Positions 2,828 through 61,246 of a stretch of 64,000 nucleotides of DNA are shown here, in pieces (the first letter of the stretch is position 1; the number at the start of each line of letters is the position of its first letter). The stretch is taken from the IMG/VR virus record IMGVR_UViG_3300031565_000002; one strand, given 5' to 3'. The notes under the pieces were generated by a model. It was not told the origin of the DNA and made no database searches. It worked only from the letters and a program-made list of their open reading frames with translations. The position numbers were made by a program, and so were the translations under genes. Origin of the DNA: an uncultured virus (IMG/VR IMGVR_UViG_3300031565_000002). Taxonomy: Duplodnaviria; Heunggongvirae; Uroviricota; Caudoviricetes.

Positions 2828-3020
2828 AAAAAGTAGGCATCCGTTTTGAAAATGCAATGTTTTACCAATTTGACCATCTCCCCATAATTAGAGATACTAT
2901 TATATATCCCTAATGGAGGGGAGACGAGGAATCGAACCTCGAATGGGCTTGCGCCCACTTCATTTACGGTGAAGTGTCTTTACCATGTATGCATCAAAGG
3001 TCGAAGACGCTCTACTTTTT
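2828..3020 (-). ncRNA. scaffold repeat copy 1 carrying circularly permuted tRNA(GTA)
   Basis: tRNA 3' part 2984-2914 ending CCA precedes 30-nt hairpin linker and 5' part 2883-2860; flanked by conserved complementary arms. Confidence 0.8.
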
Positions 3021-3049
3021 ATTTCAAAGATCAAAATTTTATATAAAAA

Positions 3050-3191
3050 AGGTGGTCATCCATTTTGAAAATGCAAGTTTTTTGTATACTAATTGGGAAT
3101 TGAACCCAAGACAGATCGATTCATAGTCGATTGCTCTACCAACTGAGCTATAAGCATTATGTATGCATTAAAGGTCGAAGACGCTCCACCT
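3050..3191 (-). ncRNA. scaffold repeat copy 2 carrying non-permuted tRNA-like (ATG anticodon, no CCA)
   Basis: Same arms; insert 3157-3085 has D, anticodon and T arms and a weak acceptor stem. Confidence 0.75.
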
Positions 3192-3219
3192 CATTTATGT
3201 CAAAGAACAAAATTTATAA

Positions 3220-3398
3220 AAAAAGCAGGCATCCGTTTTGAAAATGCAATTTTTTTATTAAGCTTTTCCCCCATAATCAAGGGTACTATTAAGTACCATT
3301 GATGGTGGGGGAACAGGGAATTGAACCCCGAATCTTTTGGTTATGATCCAAATGCTTGACCTATGTATGCATTAAAGGTCGAAGACGCTCTGCTTTTT
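3220..3398 (-). ncRNA. scaffold repeat copy 3 carrying circularly permuted tRNA(CAT)
   Basis: 3' part 3361-3303 ending CCA, linker 3302-3273, 5' part GGGGGAAAAGCTTAAT 3272-3257. Confidence 0.8.
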
Positions 3399-3825: not shown

Positions 3826-3901
3826 TGGTGCCACCTTCCAGAGTTGAACTGGAGACACCTGGATTTTCAGTCCAGTGCTCTACCGACTGAGCTAAAGTGG
3901 C
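3826..3901 (-). tRNA. tRNA-Phe(GAA)
   Basis: Cloverleaf, loop CTGAAAA, CCA. Confidence 0.92.
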
Positions 3902-4028
3902 ATAAATTTAATAAGGTATCTACACGTCCAGTCTAGCTGGCTTCCTGCTCCCTACGCACCCATACAATCAACTTGCATGTATGGCCACCCTCGATACCTT
4001 TAATCATTTTTTATTCCTTTGTTAACAT

Positions 4029-4062
4029 AAAAAAAGCCCTACTTCTTTCGAGGCAGGGCTTT
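4029..4062 (-). terminator. attenuator terminator 1
   Basis: AAAGCCCTGCCTC-GAAA-GAAGTAGGGCTTTTTTT; 5' arm also complementary to GGGCAGGG in the leader. Confidence 0.85.
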
Positions 4063-4092
4063 CAGGTCTTATTTATGTGTAGTATTCTCTAC

Positions 4093-4218
4093 TTATCCAC
4101 TTTGACCTTTCACCCTGCCCATCACGAGACTAAAATCTGAGCGCAATGATGTCCATAACATATCCGAATAATGGATATGCGTCAGACTACATATTGCTAG
4201 GGTTTTGAAAGGATTCAT
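4093..4218 (-). CDS. leader peptide 1 MNPFKTLAICSLTHIHYSDMLWTSLRSDFSLVMGRVKGQSG
   Basis: Hand translation; GGAG upstream; overlaps antiterminator; not in ORF track. Confidence 0.7.
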   Translation of the reverse strand: MNPFKTLAICSLTHIHYSDMLWTSLRSDFSLVMGRVKGQSG

Positions 4219-4264
4219 TTGAATTTAATACTCCGGCTAAAATTATTTTTATTAAAAGAGCTTG

Positions 4265-4384
4265 ATTCTATACGTTTTATCAATGCAAGATGAGGTGCTA
4301 GTTTGCACCCCGATATACTGAATCATTTTGCTGTGACACAAATTGTTTTATATATGTATGCATCAAAGGTCGAGTACAGAATTT
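4265..4384 (-). ncRNA. scaffold repeat copy 4 with non-tRNA hairpin payload
   Basis: TCGACCTTTGATGCATACATA ... TTGCATTGATAAAACG arms, outer stem ATTCT/AGAAT. Confidence 0.6.
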
Positions 4385-4443
4385 CGCCCTTGTATATTTA
4401 CACTTTATTATTCTCCAAAAAAATATCGGAGAAATTTAAAAAA

Positions 4444-4621
4444 AGGAAAAACTATCCGTTTTATAAGAGCAAGTTTTTGCTGAACTATGCCCCCGTATTG
4501 AGAGTACCTTACCGAATGATACCCCTAATGGCGGGGGCATGAGGATTCTCACCTCAGACTTCTTGTACCGAAAACAAGTGTTCTGTATGTATGCCCCAAA
4601 GGTCGAGGACAGCTTTTTCCT
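4444..4621 (-). ncRNA. scaffold repeat copy 5 carrying circularly permuted tRNA(TCG)
   Basis: 3' part 4585-4529 ending GCCA, hairpin linker, 5' part GGGGGCATAGTTCAGC 4494-4479. Confidence 0.75.
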
Positions 4622-5011: not shown

Positions 5012-5976
5012 TCTTATTATTCCCTTTCAAGTTCAATTACAGCATGACCATGATCAGCCATTACCCCAACGCAACGATAATTACTTTGGCTAACCTGCAA
5101 TCCGGAATCATCTGTAATTTCAAGCTGCTTAACATCTGCCTGCTCTTCCCAATTGTAAAACTTTTTAAGCTCATCGTGATCTACCCCAAAAATCACAAGA
5201 TGCTCTGTAATACCATTAGAATCAATAACATTTGACGCATGAGCACATTTAAATCTAATAACTTCCATATCTCACTCCATATCCATCATACAACCGGTAT
5301 GAACGGGTACATCTTTAGGTTTACAAGGTTTCCCAGCAGGGGTTTCACATTCCGTTACAATCGTCTGATCAGGTTTAGGGCTTGCCATTCCACATAACCA
5401 ACATTTAGGATTTTTAACACTTTTCTTTGGTTTTCTCCTTAGCCCAATAGCATCCAGCACTTCATCTGATACTATACAATTATGATATCGTTCATCCACC
5501 AAAATGCCAGGGCAACCACACTTACAAGTCCCATAGCTATTAAACAAAACAACTTCTTCACCGCAACCAGAGCACTTACCAATAGTCAATGGTATTACCA
5601 TAAGTTTTTTCTTAGACATAGTACCGTCCCGTTTCACAATCAACTTCAATATTTTTATCATATAAAGACGGATCAATCATCCATTGAAATAAATGGTCTT
5701 TTTCCCCTGTCTCTATTATCTCTCCTGATTCCATAACAGTAATTTCTTTAAGGCAAGTGAAAATCATTGGGCCACCAGACCAAGGGGTATCCTGTACCAC
5801 TTCCTGTAAACGGAACTCCTTATTAGGAAATTCAGGAATAGGCATGTGATATATACTACCTTTAATAATTTCATCAAACATACCTTGGCACATATCATAC
5901 TCTTCAACTTTGGTAGCATTTTCAACAAACTTTAAAGCATACAAATTTAACCCGATATATTGCGTCTCCCTAGACA

Positions 5977-6633
5977 CTAATGCTTATCCTCTGATTTAAC
6001 ATCTCGTTCTTTATGTATAATTTTTACAAATTCAAGCTGATTCAACAACATAACTTTAATATTTTCGTAAATAGATTCCTGTTCTGGAAAAAGTCTTTTC
6101 GCCTTTTTAATCATAGGTAAAATATGATTTTCAGTCTCAATTATATAAGCCAACTGATTATCAGCAGCAAACACATTTACCATAGTCTGAAAATTATTTA
6201 TTCTATCAACACCCTTACATACAGATACTATTGGATTTTTATACATAAACCTGAAATATTCAGTATTAGACACTTTTCTTCCATCAACATTCTTACTTAA
6301 ACTCATAGCAGCATCAGCCATTATATCCCCAAAAAGAGAAGTTAACTCATTACATGATACATCATAATCTTCTGGGGTATCATGTAAAAATATTGTCCCA
6401 TACGTTTCCTCTTTATGAATTAGCAATGGCTCAAAAACTCTAGCATAATGAGCCATAGATAATTGGTGATAAAATTCAGGGGTAAACCCATCTTTCCTTT
6501 TCCCCTTATGAATATTCGATGCATATTCCATAGCTTTAACAGCAGTAAGATATCCCCTGCCAACCAACCAATACCTTAATGATATTTTTGCTTTCTTAAA
6601 AATCTCTAACTTTGCCAACTCTTTTGCGTCCAT
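5977..6633 (-). CDS. HD-domain (p)ppGpp hydrolase-like (SpoT/Mesh1 family)
   Basis: A..YA..H.G.RKDG.P..H, LHDTPED, K..DRI.N motifs. Confidence 0.8.
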   Translation of the reverse strand: MDAKELAKLEIFKKAKISLRYWLVGRGYLTAVKAMEYASNIHKGKRKDGFTPEFYHQLSMAHYARVFEPLLIHKEETYGTIFLHDTPEDYDVSCNELTSLFGDIMADAAMSLSKNVDGRKVSNTEYFRFMYKNPIVSVCKGVDRINNFQTMVNVFAADNQLAYIIETENHILPMIKKAKRLFPEQESIYENIKVMLLNQLEFVKIIHKERDVKSEDKH

Positions 6634-9169: not shown

Positions 9170-9784
9170 CTATAGTAACTGGTTAAACAGGTTTTCATCC
9201 CCTTGACAAAAAACCTTCAATTGTCGTATCCATGCCTCATTCTTTATCTTAAACATTAACGGAGGATAACCATTTTTTAGCGGTGCTCCCTTACATACCA
9301 CTCCTTCAAATGTCATCCCCTGTAATTTTCCTCTCTTAACATTATCTTCTAAAATCTTATTGACATTTCCCCGATAAAGAAACTTCGCAATATTAAGATC
9401 ACCATATAATCTCAAAAAATTCCTCGGAAGTAAAATCCCCTTTTTATGAGGATTAACATCAATTAATGATAAAAAATGTTCTTCATCTGTATGTTGTCCG
9501 GCAAATGAATTTGGTCCCCAAAATTCAAAGAACCCAATTGCCTTCACGTATCTTTCTTTTCTAAATATATCAGACATCTGTTTTTCAAAATTGGATTTTA
9601 TCAACTCTATTGCTTCCGGAAGGAAGTCTTGGTCTGTACCTATGAGGCGTTTCTTGCTACCAAATTTATGAAATTTTTTCTTTGGAGTCCATTCCGCTCT
9701 AATATTAGACCCATCTAATTTATCAAAGACGTAAACAGGTCTGCCATAATAAATTTCTCTACCAATGGTGGGGTATTGTTTCAT
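9170..9784 (-). CDS. ATP-dependent RNA ligase-like protein
   Basis: KLDGSN motif I, FFEFWG, EGVVCK, FKIK nucleotidyltransferase motifs. Confidence 0.75.
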   Translation of the reverse strand: MKQYPTIGREIYYGRPVYVFDKLDGSNIRAEWTPKKKFHKFGSKKRLIGTDQDFLPEAIELIKSNFEKQMSDIFRKERYVKAIGFFEFWGPNSFAGQHTDEEHFLSLIDVNPHKKGILLPRNFLRLYGDLNIAKFLYRGNVNKILEDNVKRGKLQGMTFEGVVCKGAPLKNGYPPLMFKIKNEAWIRQLKVFCQGDENLFNQLL

Positions 9785-19463: not shown

Positions 19464-19469
19464 ATATAG

Positions 19470-19740
19470 AATCAGTGGGGGGATTCGAACCCATCACCAA
19501 TAATCTACTTCTCTGTCTTACTAACTTAATCTACTAAATATGAATCAACTATAAAGCCTGTCCAGACCTTCCTCTGGCTCACGTTTTTTTGAGCTTGCGC
19601 CCATGCCATGTTGCTTTACAATATAAAACATACCTTTTGAATAACTTTTCCAACAGTCTTTCGATTATCAACGATTTCTCCGCACCAGGAACCAAATGGC
19701 ATGTGCGCTGTCCTGTGCTCTACCGCTGAGCTACACTGAT
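19470..19740 (-). ncRNA. tRNA-like RNA with ~190-nt insertion
   Basis: Acceptor ATCAGTG/CACTGAT, D arm and TTCGAAT T loop flank a long insert. Confidence 0.65.
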
Positions 19741-19749
19741 TCTAATAAC

Positions 19750-20487: not shown

Positions 20488-20507
20488 GAATTCATCCTTT
20501 TCCCAAT

Positions 20508-20540
20508 AAAAAAAGCCTTCTCTTTTTCAAGAGGAGGCTT
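20508..20540 (-). terminator. attenuator terminator 2
   Basis: AAGCCTCCTCTT-GAAA-AAGAGAAGGCTTTTTTT. Confidence 0.85.
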
Positions 20541-20596
20541 CTTATCTTTTTGTACTTTTATCTATTTTAGGTCAGTTTTAAGATAAAGAATCCCCC

Positions 20597-20665
20597 TCAC
20601 AGTCCAGGTTTCTGTACTGGTTGCGGCTTTACGACAAGCACGGGTTTTCTAATTATAACTGACAT
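20597..20665 (-). CDS. leader peptide 2 MSVIIRKPVLVVKPQPVQKPGL
   Basis: GGAG RBS; stop codon overlaps antiterminator; not in ORF track. Confidence 0.8.
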   Translation of the reverse strand: MSVIIRKPVLVVKPQPVQKPGL

Positions 20666-20706
20666 CACTTCTCCATTTTAATAAATAACTATTCCTAATC
20701 TATCTT

Positions 20707-20735
20707 AATATAACACGAAATACTAAAAAAGTCAA
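20707..20735 (-). promoter_or_regulatory. sigma70-type promoter
   Basis: TTGACT-17 nt-TATATT. Confidence 0.8.
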
Positions 20736-22061
20736 CAACTTTATGAAATTATTTTTATCCGTTATTTAATTACTTTATTTTCATCTTTAAAAATATCGTA
20801 TATTTCTCTTGGTCTCACATAAATCTTCCTTAAAGACCCTTCCTTACCACATTTTTTACAATCACCATATACAGCAAAAGGGCTTTTATTGTATTCAGTA
20901 CGCTTTTTCAACTTATTTGCACAAGACATACACACACCATGATAATGCTTCTTTACCGTAGATCTTCTTCCTACATCAACACACTTCGTCCCTGCTGGCT
21001 TACCGCATATCTGACAAATATCATCCCAATTACCACTATCACTTTCATCGTGCTCTTTTAATTTATTAAGTTTTACGGCACATACTGAGCATATCATCTT
21101 ACGCATTATTATCTCTCACAGCATCTAATCTCTCTTTATTCTTATCTTTTTCGTTACATACATCACTATCTATATTTTCCTTCTTTATCTTTGGCTTTCT
21201 GGGACACCAACTAGGGACATTGCATTCTTTTTTGGTGTGATGCGGCCTACAACCACACGTTATGACCTTATCGTTTTTAGCCTTACATACTACCTTAACA
21301 TCATCATCACAAAACCAATCGTAAGGATCTGGATCAGACAAAACTTTATGCTCTGGACATTCAGTACAATTACTAACTTCAAAATTTATTATCATTTCAG
21401 CCCCTTTATCCTAAATCCCCTCACGGGCCTATCCTCATCCTTCCGATATAATCTCATAGCCTTCGCAACATCAACAAAATCTTTATCTAACATTTCAATT
21501 TCTTTTCTTAATTTCTCGATACTTTTATTGTACTGATCCATGTCAGCACTCCGCTGATTTTGAAAATTATTACGCTCATTATGAATAAACTCTTTAAATT
21601 TGCCTATCGCTTCATCTCTTTTAACTATTTCATCAAGGAATAAATCATCCGCTGCTTCTTTATCTTTCAAAACCCTAACTATTCTTTTGCTATGCTCACT
21701 AATCATAGTATTTGCTGCAGATAAATCTATCTGCAATCTTTCCTTATCTAACGATAATTCTCTACAATCATTCTTTAACTCATTAATTCGATCATCGAGT
21801 AATACTATAGTATGCCCTTTAGAAGTTACAAGAACATCTCTTTGGTCAACTTCAGAAACTAATATCGAAAGTTTACTCTCATATTCAGACTCCCTAAAAT
21901 GAAGCATACCATCAACATTAACTTCCCAAATAAATACTTTATTCAATTTAAATGAATAATATCTCTCATCATTACCTATGGTGGTTATTTTGCACCAATT
22001 TACAAAAAACCAATGATAAGCACCATCAGGAGAACTTTTAAAAAGAAACGGAAATACCTTC

Positions 22062-29005: not shown

Positions 29006-29080
29006 TGGTACGCCCGAGAGGACTTGAACCCCCGACGCGCAGATCTAGAATCTACCGTTCTGCCACTGAACTACAGGCGC
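29006..29080 (-). tRNA. amber suppressor tRNA (CTA anticodon)
   Basis: Stem GTAGA/TCTGC closing loop TTCTAGA; complete cloverleaf with CCA. Confidence 0.85.
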
Positions 29081-39498: not shown

Positions 39499-39591
39499 AT
39501 AACATTATTACACTTTATTTTATATCAAAGAACTATCGTGTTTTCATAATAGGGGTGGGGGGAGTTGAACCCGCCCACTGACACGGCTTAT

Positions 39592-40219
39592 CTTACCACC
39601 ATAGCTTTCGCTACCATTTCTGTTTGTGGTCTGGACTTTCCCTTGACCATATTTTCAAGAACTTAGGCCCCTCCCGTCAAGTCTCTACACCTTCCATTTT
39701 TCAGGATTGGCTCGGGATTGCCATCAGCATCACCTGTTAAAGTTTCCCCGAATTTGAGAGGTTCTACTTTCTACGTTTCCATAGAAGCACTCATATTTTA
39801 ACAACCCAATCAACAAGGAGGTTGTCTTTTGCCCATTTAACCTTACTCGACTGATTATTTAAAGGAAAATCTATACGAAGTACCATCGTTCCCTTTGGTG
39901 CTTCATTAATGTCTATAGTATAATATTCATCATTTTCATAACAATAAACGATAAAAACATCTATAAGACCATCGTAATATTTTTTATAACTTCCTTTCGT
40001 ATTAACCCTTGACGAGCATGTATTAAAGGCTACACAACCATTACCATCCAGCCTTCCTGTTTTACATTGAACTCTAAAAAACTTATGAGTTCCATCTACT
40101 AATAAATCATATGGCTGATTATCGCCAACAGGAACACTAACAACCTTACCAAGTTCCATTAGCCTAGTGATTATCTTCTGTTCGGTTAATTCTCCTTTTA
40201 CTTTTGGATTATTATTCAT
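39592..40219 (-). mobile_element. group I intron (IC3-like) with homing endonuclease ORF
   Basis: Core motifs AAATTCGGGGAAAC, AATCCCGAGCC, GTAGAGACTTGACGG, AAGGGAAAGTCC; U at 5' splice site, terminal G. Confidence 0.88.
39791..40219 (-). CDS. intron-encoded PD-(D/E)XK endonuclease (I-Ssp6803I-like)
   Basis: KGELTE, P.GDNQPYDL, RVQCKTG. Confidence 0.88.
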   Translation of the reverse strand: MNNNPKVKGELTEQKIITRLMELGKVVSVPVGDNQPYDLLVDGTHKFFRVQCKTGRLDGNGCVAFNTCSSRVNTKGSYKKYYDGLIDVFIVYCYENDEYYTIDINEAPKGTMVLRIDFPLNNQSSKVKWAKDNLLVDWVVKI

Positions 40220-40356
40220 AAGACCGCCGCTCTAACCTCACATGAGCTACACCCCCATAAATTGGAATATACAGCCACATATTCGACCATCGAATACACA
40301 ACTCACCAAACTTACTGAATGTAGCACAAATCTCATTTTCATCTCCATTTTGACAT

Positions 40357-40392
40357 AAAAAAAACTCTGTCGGGTTTTGCCTGACAGAGTTT
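40357..40392 (-). terminator. attenuator terminator 4
   Basis: AAACTCTGTCAGG-CAAAA-CCCGACAGAGTTTTTTTT; antiterminator GCCTGACAAGAG 40420-40409. Confidence 0.85.
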
Positions 40393-40424
40393 AAAATTCA
40401 TGTTTAGTCTCTTGTCAGGCCGCA

Positions 40425-40505
40425 CTATCCTCCGCCTTCTGCATTAATAGCAGCTTCATCTATAATATTAGTGCTTCTTATTATCCTGACAGTTGTTGCT
40501 AACAT
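40425..40505 (-). CDS. leader peptide 4 MLATTVRIIRSTNIIDEAAINAEGGG
   Basis: GAGGA RBS; hand translation; not in ORF track. Confidence 0.78.
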   Translation of the reverse strand: MLATTVRIIRSTNIIDEAAINAEGGG

Positions 40506-40611
40506 AAAAAGTTAATCCTCGTTTAAATCCTAGTTTAATACCTTACTTAACTATTTTACTATTATGGTTTAAAATATCGGTATTAAACCAAAAAAGTTTA
40601 TTGTTGTTCCT

Positions 40612-40640
40612 AATATACCCCTAAAACCCAAAAAAGTCAA
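40612..40640 (-). promoter_or_regulatory. sigma70-type promoter
   Basis: TTGACT-17 nt-TATATT. Confidence 0.78.
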
Positions 40641-40941
40641 CAACTTTTTAAAATTATTTTTACGGTTCATCAATAAGAGCTTTATCTTTATCGTTAATAC
40701 TATTTATAAATTTATCATTTTCAACATGATAAATTATAAATTTTACCTTACCATACCTTCTATTGGCCTCAGAAAGAGCAATCGCATGATCATCAAATAC
40801 CCCCTCTATTCTTGCCTTGCGTATCAGTAAGTACTTATTAAGATACTTCTCCAAAAATTCTTCTTCATGTTCCCGTATCCACTTTAGGTTCCTATTCGCA
40901 TCACGTGCCATAACTATCCTCCTTTTGATAAATGGAAGTTA

Positions 40942-59645: not shown

Positions 59646-60056
59646 CTAAAATTTGACGTATTTAGCATACCCCAATTCTACTAATTGATCGTTCAAATTA
59701 ATTTCAGGCTCTTCAACATTGTCATCATCCTTAAAATAAAAAATCTCAACTATAAACCTGCCATACTTACCGGTTCTATCCTTCTTAGTCTGAATAGAAA
59801 TGGTTTTGCCAGACAATATATCTGCAACAAACTGCTTAGCTTCCAATCCCTTTTCTTTGTCCTCTGGGGTTGTCCCTTTTACAAGACGAGTCTCATATGC
59901 ATCGATGCGTGCCAATCTCAATCTTTGAGTTATCTTAACTCCAAAACCTAAATCAACATCAACGTCAATAGTGTCTCCATCGACAACCCTCTTTACTACA
60001 GCATTATAATCATACATATACCATCTGCTACTTTCTAAGTGCTCATTACTGAACAT
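59646..60056 (-). CDS. thermonuclease (SNase-like)
   Basis: VVDGDTID, RLARIDAYE, GKYGR, N..LV..GYA; real start probably MYDY. Confidence 0.9.
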   Translation of the reverse strand: MFSNEHLESSRWYMYDYNAVVKRVVDGDTIDVDVDLGFGVKITQRLRLARIDAYETRLVKGTTPEDKEKGLEAKQFVADILSGKTISIQTKKDRTGKYGRFIVEIFYFKDDDNVEEPEINLNDQLVELGYAKYVKF

Positions 60057-61246
60057 TCTGAAATTCCTACTTCTTCCAAGGCAGTTTCGTTTGTCCCAAT
60101 TGAGGACGGATAAACCAGAGCTTCCTTGTCCATAGGCGTTAATTCGGGATTAACCATCCCTATTTTATTAAGACCATAGTTCTTTAAATTTATTGAAGCA
60201 TTCAGGTCACGGTCTATAACCTGGCCACAATTTTCACAAATAAATTCCCTTTCGGAAAGTAATAGCTCTGCCTTTACATAACCACAACCCGAACAAGTCT
60301 TAGAAGAAGGAAACCACCTATCCGCAACGATTAGTGTATTCCCATAAAGAACTGATTTATATTCAAGTTGTCTACGAAATTCACCAAAACCTAAATCAGA
60401 AATACTTAAAGCTAATTTATGATTCTTCAGCATTCCTGAGACATTCAGGTCCTCAATCACTATAATCTGATAATTATTACAAAGATAAGTAGTAAGTTTA
60501 TCGAGGATGTCTTTCCTTAGACAGGCAATTTCATAATGAACTTTAGCTACTTTTCGATTAGCCTTATGCCTGTTAGAAGATCCCTTAATTTTTCTCGATG
60601 CCCATCTCTGTAATAATTTAAGCTTACCTAAACGCCTGCGTAAAGGATTGACAGACACTATCACTTTCCTGTCACTTAAAGTAGCCAGTGTTTTAATTCC
60701 AAGATCAACACCTACAACTGCTTGGTTATCACAAATAGTAGAATTAATCTCAGTTTGAACACTAATCACTATGAACCAATAATCTGCTTTTCTTCTGACT
60801 ACAGCAGACATTATTTTCCCGGCAAATCTTAAGGGTTCTGCCCCTTTGACCCATCCGAGTTTAGGTATCCTGAATTTATTTTCTTCTACTGAAAATTTAT
60901 CATTTGAGATGTAAAAAGAGTCTCTTCTACCCTTTTTCTTAAATACAGGATATTTATTTTGATATTTAAAGAATCTTCCAAAAGCTGCCTGAAGATTAGT
61001 AAAAGGTTGTTGGTTAGCGTCTTTATTTGTCTCAGACATCCAAGGAAATTTAATTTTCTTTTCTTTATTAAATTGTTTTTTAATTTCTAAGATATTAGGT
61101 TTTAAACCTTCTTCTTTTAACCTTTGATACTCAGAGAGGCCATAGTTATAAGCAACTCGGGCACAGCCACACGCTTTCCTGAAGAAGGTTTCGTGCCCTT
61201 TAGTAGGGTAGAGACGAATAGTATGCACTAAATTTAAAATGCTCAT
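60035..61246 (-). mobile_element. tnpB: TnpB RNA-guided nuclease, IS200/IS605-family element without tnpA
   Basis: IRLYP HTH, GVDLGIK, IEDL, SSKTCSGCG, DRDLNASIN. Confidence 0.92.

Follow-up and report, generated by a model that had tools for sequence, protein, structure and literature searches.

Candidate attenuators that may sense translation speed head the tRNA gene blocks of a soil phage

Introduction

Leader-peptide attenuation is the textbook means by which bacteria sense charged tRNA, and it is known for amino-acid or synthetase genes. Multivalent leader-peptide attenuators are found in enterobacterial operons such as thr (Thr plus Ile) and ilvGMEDA and ilvBN (Leu, Val, and Ile), and leader-peptide attenuators also control trp, his, leu, and pheA. 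The pheM leader-peptide attenuator controls pheST, which encodes phenylalanyl-tRNA synthetase. Among the papers listed by full-text literature searches, none dealt with attenuation of tRNA arrays.

Here we analyze a minus-strand region, designated attenuator 1, that precedes a series of tRNA genes in phage-like DNA. Throughout, the window means the whole stretch of DNA that was analyzed (64,000 nucleotides). Judged from its sequence features, the region is best read as an attenuator of tRNA genes that senses the speed of translation, and we hold this reading with moderate confidence. Like the thr and ilv attenuators, it has a short leader that is rich in relevant codons and predicted to be translated, an intrinsic terminator, and an antiterminator that cannot form together with that terminator. 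As in those systems, the position of the stop codon would let a finishing ribosome cover the antiterminator arm, and ribosome speed would be the read-out. Unlike them, the phage element would gate tRNA genes (with interspersed phage ORFs) and not biosynthetic or synthetase genes, and whereas their leaders contain runs of codons for one to three amino acids, the phage leader samples at least eight amino acids and many synonymous codons. It differs from the trp leader in a further respect, in that the phage element offers no support for the 1:2 helix, which causes termination in trp leaders that are not translated.

A parallel to control of the decoding apparatus is pheM, which likewise places one of its components under leader-peptide attenuation. 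Unlike pheM, where a synthetase gene is controlled and one amino acid is sensed, the product of the phage element would be the sensed tRNA itself, giving a direct feedback loop. The predicted terminator/antiterminator switch, responsive to tRNA status, is also reminiscent of the T-box riboswitches (RF00230), which differ in that they bind uncharged tRNA directly, need no ORF, and control synthetase or amino-acid genes. Attenuation logic appears in this case to feed back on tRNA genes themselves, in a virus.

The window and its tRNA genes

The window is phage-like DNA of 36% G+C, and its long ORFs lie nearly all on the minus strand. The gene content includes a ribonucleotide reductase, a helicase, a dUTPase, methylases, and several HNH endonucleases. 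At 60035-61246 the phage also encodes an IS605 OrfB/TnpB-like protein, which includes a Cas12f-like TNB domain. The DNA sequencing runs that contain the stretch are labelled soil metagenomes, with no RNA run among those listed, and the closest cultured relatives (by helicase, at no more than 32% identity) infect members of the Bacillota, namely, Listeria and Bacillus. ARAGORN called 40 tRNA genes in the window, all on the minus strand, and 39 of them were supported by Rfam; no tRNA-Trp or tRNA-Thr was called in the window. The earlier note had predicted tRNA-Trp, more Leu and Ser tRNAs, and perhaps tRNA-Thr in the sequence to the left of the window.

The tRNA genes that lie between successive attenuators are referred to here as blocks. 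Block 3 holds tRNAs for Ile, Ala (three), Asp, Glu (three), Gly (three), Asn (two), Met, and Arg (four) together with a CTA suppressor; block 2 holds Lys (three), Val (two), Pro (three), and Gln (two). Block 1, which continues as far as the left end of the window, holds tRNAs for Phe, Ser (two), Tyr, Asp, His (two), Leu (two), Met, and Cys, the amino acids that the earlier note on this DNA had listed for the tRNAs downstream of leader 1. The blocks are 4 to 20 kb long and contain many protein genes and, on the same strand, other terminator-like hairpins.

Several of the tRNA genes are unusual. A group I intron interrupts the tRNA gene at 39545-40258 (minus strand); the intron scores under the Rfam cut-off (36.5 bits, E=2e-7) and opens with the ATG of an ORF for a 142-aa PD-(D/E)XK endonuclease. 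In another tRNA-like gene, at 19469-19745 (minus strand), the acceptor stem, D arm, and T arm are normal, but the "anticodon" loop is 20 nt long and about 190 nt are inserted; the insertion-bearing gene had no Rfam match, and its anticodon calls varied with the junction chosen (ARAGORN with introns, and in silico intron removal). The tRNA(CTA) at 29006-29080 is of the amber-suppressor type; TAG nonetheless terminates 20 of 69 long ORFs.

Layout of attenuator 1

The elements of attenuator 1 were located where the earlier note had placed them, all on the minus strand. Promoter P1 (4661-4691; TTGACA-17-TATATT) is one of three perfect copies of the motif GTTGACWTTTTT-N12-TATATTA and is the sole minus-strand sigma-70-like site from 4720 to tRNA-Phe(GAA) (3826-3901, minus strand), which is the first gene of block 1 and would be the first to be gated. 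Between the promoter and the leader lies stalk-clamped unit e (4438-4620), the cargo of which is a circularly permuted tRNA-Arg(TCG); stalk-clamped unit d (4253-4391) has a 69-nt cargo of unknown kind. The sequence GGAG at 4231-4234, a possible Shine-Dalgarno sequence, is 12 nt before the ATG, a weak spacing in comparison with the 5 to 9 nt usual in the phage's genes.

Leader ORF 1, MNPFKTLAICSLTHIHYSDMLWTSLRSDFSLVMGRVKGQSG, occupies 4093-4218 and comprises 41 codons, starting with the ATG at 4218, plus a TAA stop (4095-4093). Segment 1 (4195-4218) corresponds to leader codons 1 to 8; the minimum-energy fold pairs it with segment 2, though no better than chance. Segment 2 (4104-4120), the 5' arm of the antiterminator, lies within leader codons 33 to 39, with the stop codon 8 nt further on. 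Segment 3 (4051-4068), the 3' arm of the antiterminator, includes the entire 5' arm of the intrinsic terminator. The terminator itself (4026-4062) consists of a hairpin (4062-4033; -16.9 kcal/mol) followed by seven T residues (4032-4026). This hairpin was absent from a simple terminator scan because its stem is bulged, and it was present in a fold-based scan.

At gathering score, Rfam identified only tRNAs. At E values up to 10, and apart from a tRNA-like match at 4532-4598, the best matches scored 26 bits against a cut-off of 60 bits and 18 bits against a cut-off of 54. T-box, riboswitch, and known leader families were each considered and rejected, since none gave a match near any Rfam cut-off at E values up to 10.

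Other DNA contigs of the stretch are near-identical and carry no comparative signal except at position 4113. There, a 5.3-kb contig from a second soil run has its only difference from the window, a G-to-A change on the minus strand that falls in the antiterminator arm, converts Val36 to Met, and loses one G-C pair; the site is 31 nt from the end of that contig, and we regard it as an anecdote and not as evidence.

An antiterminator that excludes the terminator

The earlier note had quoted a pairing of GGGCAGGGT..AGGTC (4120-4104) with GACCT..GCCCTGCCT (4068-4051), and this pairing was recovered with an energy of -27.4 kcal/mol. The duplex of segments 2 and 3 was matched by 1 of 1,000 dinucleotide shuffles of the upstream 161 nt and by none of 397 other 161-nt pieces of the strand. 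Because the pairing of segment 2 consumes the whole 5' arm of the terminator, terminator and antiterminator are mutually exclusive. With this shuffle result and a z score of -4.6 in the scan described below, the terminator/antiterminator switch that had been proposed for attenuator 1 is statistically solid.

No homologous copy of the attenuator element was found among window paralogues, GenBank phages, or the contig sets. In blastn searches, the interval 4020-4400 had no paralogue in the window except the stalk motif, and none of the three attenuators matched any GenBank phage. The neighbouring proteins led to 13 viral loci, at 35 to 63% identity, none of which was syntenic for attenuator 1. 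The promoter motif shared by the attenuators had no match in viral_contigs.

Two sister attenuators recovered by an unbiased scan

Every minus-strand terminator with a hairpin and U run (n=18) was scanned for sequence further upstream that could pair with and sequester the 5' arm. The terminators that stood out were three, at 20541-20512 (z=-4.7), 4062-4033 (z=-4.6), and 40392-40362 (z=-3.4); the other 15 were all above -1.4. Sister attenuators 2 and 3 were, in other words, found without using the idea of a leader. Among the best four per strand at the control loci L012, L005, L007, and L044, the lowest z was -2.16, and in a further control, the tRNA region of Xanthomonas phage XacN1, none of 15 terminators had a z below -1.5.

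The three perfect promoter copies, at 40641, 20736, and 4691, precede exactly the three switchable terminators; four weaker copies of the motif occur elsewhere in the window. All three attenuators stand at the head of a tRNA block, and each has one minus-strand ORF of at least 20 codons that lies fully between promoter and terminator, and no other. Attenuator 2 (20505-20736, minus strand) has its promoter at 20736-20706 and its terminator at 20541-20512. Leader 2, MSVIIRKPVLVVKPQPVQKPGL, runs from 20665 to 20597 and ends in TGA; segment 2 is at 20598-20580 and segment 3 at 20548-20531. Only 18 nt separate the T run of this attenuator from the start of the next gene, which leaves no room for a promoter. 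Attenuator 3 (40355-40641, minus strand) has its promoter at 40641-40611, its terminator at 40392-40362, segment 2 at 40420-40409, and segment 3 at 40389-40379; leader 3, MLATTVRIIRSTNIIDEAAINAEGGG, runs from 40505 to 40425 and ends in TAG. In all three elements the stop codon is close to segment 2, which it follows by 8 nt in attenuator 1, overlaps in attenuator 2, and precedes by 5 nt in attenuator 3. No sequence is shared among the three beyond the promoter.

Leader codons and the tRNA blocks

The amino acid sets of the leaders are Ile/Ala/Asp/Glu/Gly/Asn/Arg for leader 3, Lys/Val/Pro/Gln for leader 2, and Ser/Leu/His/Asp/Phe/Tyr/Cys/Met for leader 1. We counted the codons of each leader that the tRNAs of each block would read, applying strict wobble and excluding the initiator codon. 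For leader 3, 16 of 25 codons were matched by block 3, compared with 1 by block 2 and 2 by block 1. Leader 2 had 14 of its 21 codons matched by block 2 and 3 by each of blocks 3 and 1. The 40 codons of leader 1 were matched less sharply, with 17 for block 1, 11 for block 3, and 6 for block 2. The matches of leaders to their own blocks came to 47 of 86, against 24.1±3.7 (maximum, 39) when codons were shuffled among the leaders; none of 20,000 shuffles reached 47, and the five wrong assignments of leaders to blocks gave 11 to 27 matches.

The value of leader 2 for block 2 and that of leader 3 for block 3 were each reached by 1 of 301 small ORFs, the leader itself. Leader 2 includes all four Pro, all four Val, both Lys, and both Gln codons, and 19 of its 21 codons are distinct (P=0.0008); the codon diversity of leader 3 is not in excess (P=0.91). 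The first tRNA of block 3 is tRNA-Ile(TAT) once its group I intron is removed (by splicing after T34, with the intron ending in G), and it reads ATA, a codon present three times in leader 3.

For leader 1, the claim that several distinct Leu and Ser codons are present was borne out, in that the ORF encodes Leu by five different codons and Ser by three. The claimed match between leader 1 and the tRNAs that follow was modest when leader 1 is taken alone. At the codon level, 18 of 41 codons were matched by the 11 tRNAs called downstream (strict wobble), compared with 28% for the codons of the phage's long genes (P=0.02). At the amino acid level the match did not stand out, as 53 of 301 small ORFs (starting with ATG, 20 to 45 codons) matched the block 1 amino acid set as well as leader 1 did. 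The best 22-codon window of leader 1 was reached by 5 of 165 ORFs, and 32 of 40 codons were distinct (P=0.067). The core of the leader also contains Ile, Thr, Trp, and Arg(CGC) codons, for which the visible part of block 1 has no matching tRNA gene. The codon argument for leader 1 is weak when taken alone, because AT-rich random ORFs are also rich in the same residues.

Alternative explanations

A different way to read these data, which we consider unlikely, is that the RNA switch is real and is flipped by an RNA-binding protein of phage or host, by a small molecule, or by T-box-like binding of tRNA, the ORF being incidental. The fold of the 221-nt stretch has an energy of -63.1 kcal/mol (z=-3.3), and in this strong structure the segment 1:2 helix closes a three-way junction, as happens in riboswitch aptamers; the poor Shine-Dalgarno spacing of leader 1 and the weakness of its codon match on its own also fit a switch that needs no ribosome. 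However, no Rfam family fits, and riboswitch and T-box models gave no match at E values up to 10. That the three elements have no common sequence beyond the promoter argues against a common ligand or protein site. A switch of this type would, moreover, leave unexplained both the partition of the ORFs among the blocks (0 of 20,000 shuffles) and the presence of stop codons at segment 2 in three of three elements.

We give still less weight to an ordinary, unregulated terminator that ends a small-RNA transcript carrying units e and d, in which case the ORF and the pairing would be fortuitous and the tRNA-Phe cluster would have an unrecognised promoter of its own. Units e and d do each end in their own T run, a closed ATG ORF of at least 41 codons was present in 3.8% of 3,000 shuffles of the interval, and the 125 nt that separate terminator 1 from tRNA-Phe could conceal a nonconsensus promoter. 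Those 125 nt nevertheless contain no promoter-like (sigma-70-like) site, and chance would have to account both for an antiterminator pairing seen in 1 of 1,000 shuffles and for an arrangement that recurs twice behind the same promoter.

It is improbable that ORF 1 is a real gene for a 41-aa protein with its own terminator and unrelated to tRNA control, since the intact ORF, the GGAG upstream, and the terminator behind it have to be set against a peptide with no homologue in a word-indexed search, no Pfam family, and, in HMMER against 1.84 billion representatives, only two matches (E of about 5e-4), each to a long protein with repetitive sequence, and against the engagement of one third of the ORF in alternative RNA helices.

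Proposed mechanism

The attenuator interpretation put forward in the earlier note is thus supported, and it is carried by two sister elements that have a common promoter, a common layout, and block-specific leaders. On this interpretation, attenuator 1 would be the control region that heads the last block visible in the tRNA island of a soil phage. When leader 1 is translated fast, the ribosome would arrive at the stop codon, 8 nt past segment 2, and would sit on segment 2; with segment 2 occluded, the terminator would form and RNA polymerase would halt before tRNA-Phe. If the tRNAs for Ser, Leu, His, Asp, Phe, Tyr, Cys, and Met were scarce or damaged, decoding would be slow and segment 2 would be left free. 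Free segment 2 would pair with the terminator arm, and the polymerase would read into the genes for those same tRNAs. The phage would in this way top up its tRNA set when decoding capacity drops. The sister element at 40641-40355 would serve the Ile/Ala/Asp/Glu/Gly/Asn/Arg block in the same way, and that at 20736-20505 the Lys/Val/Pro/Gln block.

Some features of the elements bear on how such a switch would operate. The stop codon is at segment 2 in all three, and a finishing ribosome would therefore cover the antiterminator arm. Although the minimum-energy folds include the segment 1:2 helix, it was equalled by 96, 721, and 90 of 1,000 shuffles in the three elements; since this is no better than chance, a simple race is favoured. 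In a race, slow decoding anywhere in the leader would leave segment 2 free. A timer of this kind would accumulate the delay at every codon, in keeping with leaders in which many codons are sampled. With no room for a promoter after terminator 2 and no promoter site after terminator 1, expression of the downstream genes would be predicted to need readthrough. Gating of the whole of a block we only infer, because the blocks are long and contain protein genes, weaker promoter copies, and other terminators.

The footprint of a ribosome is about ±15 nt. A ribosome at the stop codon of leader 1 would, with a footprint of this size, cover mainly the 3' half of segment 2, which counts against the model. 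Loose coupling of transcription and translation has been reported in Bacillota; the host of this phage may belong to a group with loose coupling, and this would count against an attenuator.

We tentatively extend the attenuator model to the island as a whole, as a possibility that we hold with less assurance than the model for a single element. The approximately 45 tRNA genes might be arranged in at least three regulons, each gated by a codon-matched test peptide, with decoding capacity measured per codon class and only the tRNA sets that are short being replenished. Host anticodon nucleases or host shut-off are examples of what might deplete them. Attenuation of tRNA genes, if true, would explain the timing and dosage of tRNA arrays in large phages, would provide a natural and modular sensor that reports decoding speed on chosen sets of codons, and would open a direct way into the arms race in which host defences cleave tRNAs and phages supply their own. 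Three elements of one genome with differing codon sets constitute a ready-made specificity experiment.

Leader 3 is the only one of the three leaders to end in TAG (40425-40427), and its block has the tRNA(CTA). Read-through of this TAG would add six codons across the antiterminator arm, to a TAA. Read-through may carry the ribosome across segment 2, in which case the level of the suppressor tRNA may be sensed too.

Stalk-clamped units and permuted tRNA genes

The units that precede leader 1 belong to a set of five stalk-clamped units on the minus strand of the window, at 2828-3020, 3045-3196, 3218-3398, 4253-4391 (unit d), and 4438-4620 (unit e). A sixth (5889-6033, minus strand) is present at L044, a metagenome locus on an unrelated 74-kb contig, where it lies behind the same promoter type. 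In each stalk, a 5' leader is paired with a 3' trailer. The outer helix is 11 to 15 bp long and varies in sequence with the pairing kept; it is followed by an invariant internal loop, with TCGACCTTT opposite TTCAAAAC or a near variant, and by an inner helix of 6 bp, and a T run comes after the stalk. The stalk corresponds to no Rfam family and has no copy in IMG/VR. In a pattern scan, the stalk leader motif had no match in viral_contigs, 72 in metagenome_contigs, and 38 in genome_contigs, numbers that are approximately those expected by chance for 17 fixed bases; the only true copy among them was that at L044. A scan of viral_contigs for the stalk trailer motif gave four matches, all of which lay in coding DNA and were rejected as chance.

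Three of the cargoes are circularly permuted tRNA genes on the minus strand that are broken in the D-loop, namely, Met(CAT) at 3260-3361, Tyr(GTA) at 2872-2983, and Arg(TCG) at 4482-4585. Each is arranged as anticodon arm, T arm, acceptor 3' strand, CCA, linker, acceptor 5' strand, and D-stem 5' strand, and the linker is a hairpin of 30 to 34 nt. ARAGORN made no call for these cargoes in their native order. After in silico un-permutation, it called Met(CAT) in 30, Tyr(GTA) in 110, and Arg(TCG) in 62 of 169 constructs each. Rfam gave partial tRNA matches and weak permuted-tmRNA matches. The permuted tRNAs may mature as two-piece tRNAs held by the stalk, or they may be ligated. Among the papers listed by full-text literature searches, none dealt with permuted tRNA genes in phages.

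A permuted tRNA-like domain has been described in YrlA; its order is V-T-AS-D, a stem replaces the anticodon arm, and it carries a GNCGAAN0-1G motif (PMC4201824). Unlike YrlA, the phage units keep an intact anticodon arm, and the stalk leaves from the D-loop. We rejected identity of the permuted units with YrlA or Y RNA, there being no YrlA match, and a scan of 85 window ORFs yielded no TROVE protein.

Transfer RNAs with A at position 34 occur in the window as ATG (3084-3157) and AAG (194-280) and at L044 as ACT (5926-6001). The ATG and ACT tRNAs are stalk cargoes, and the ATG tRNA is without the usual His G-1:C73 features. At 9170-9784 the window encodes a 204-aa protein that has a KxDG-like motif and weakly matches RNA ligase (E=0.006); this putative ligase could bear on the joining or repair of the permuted tRNAs.
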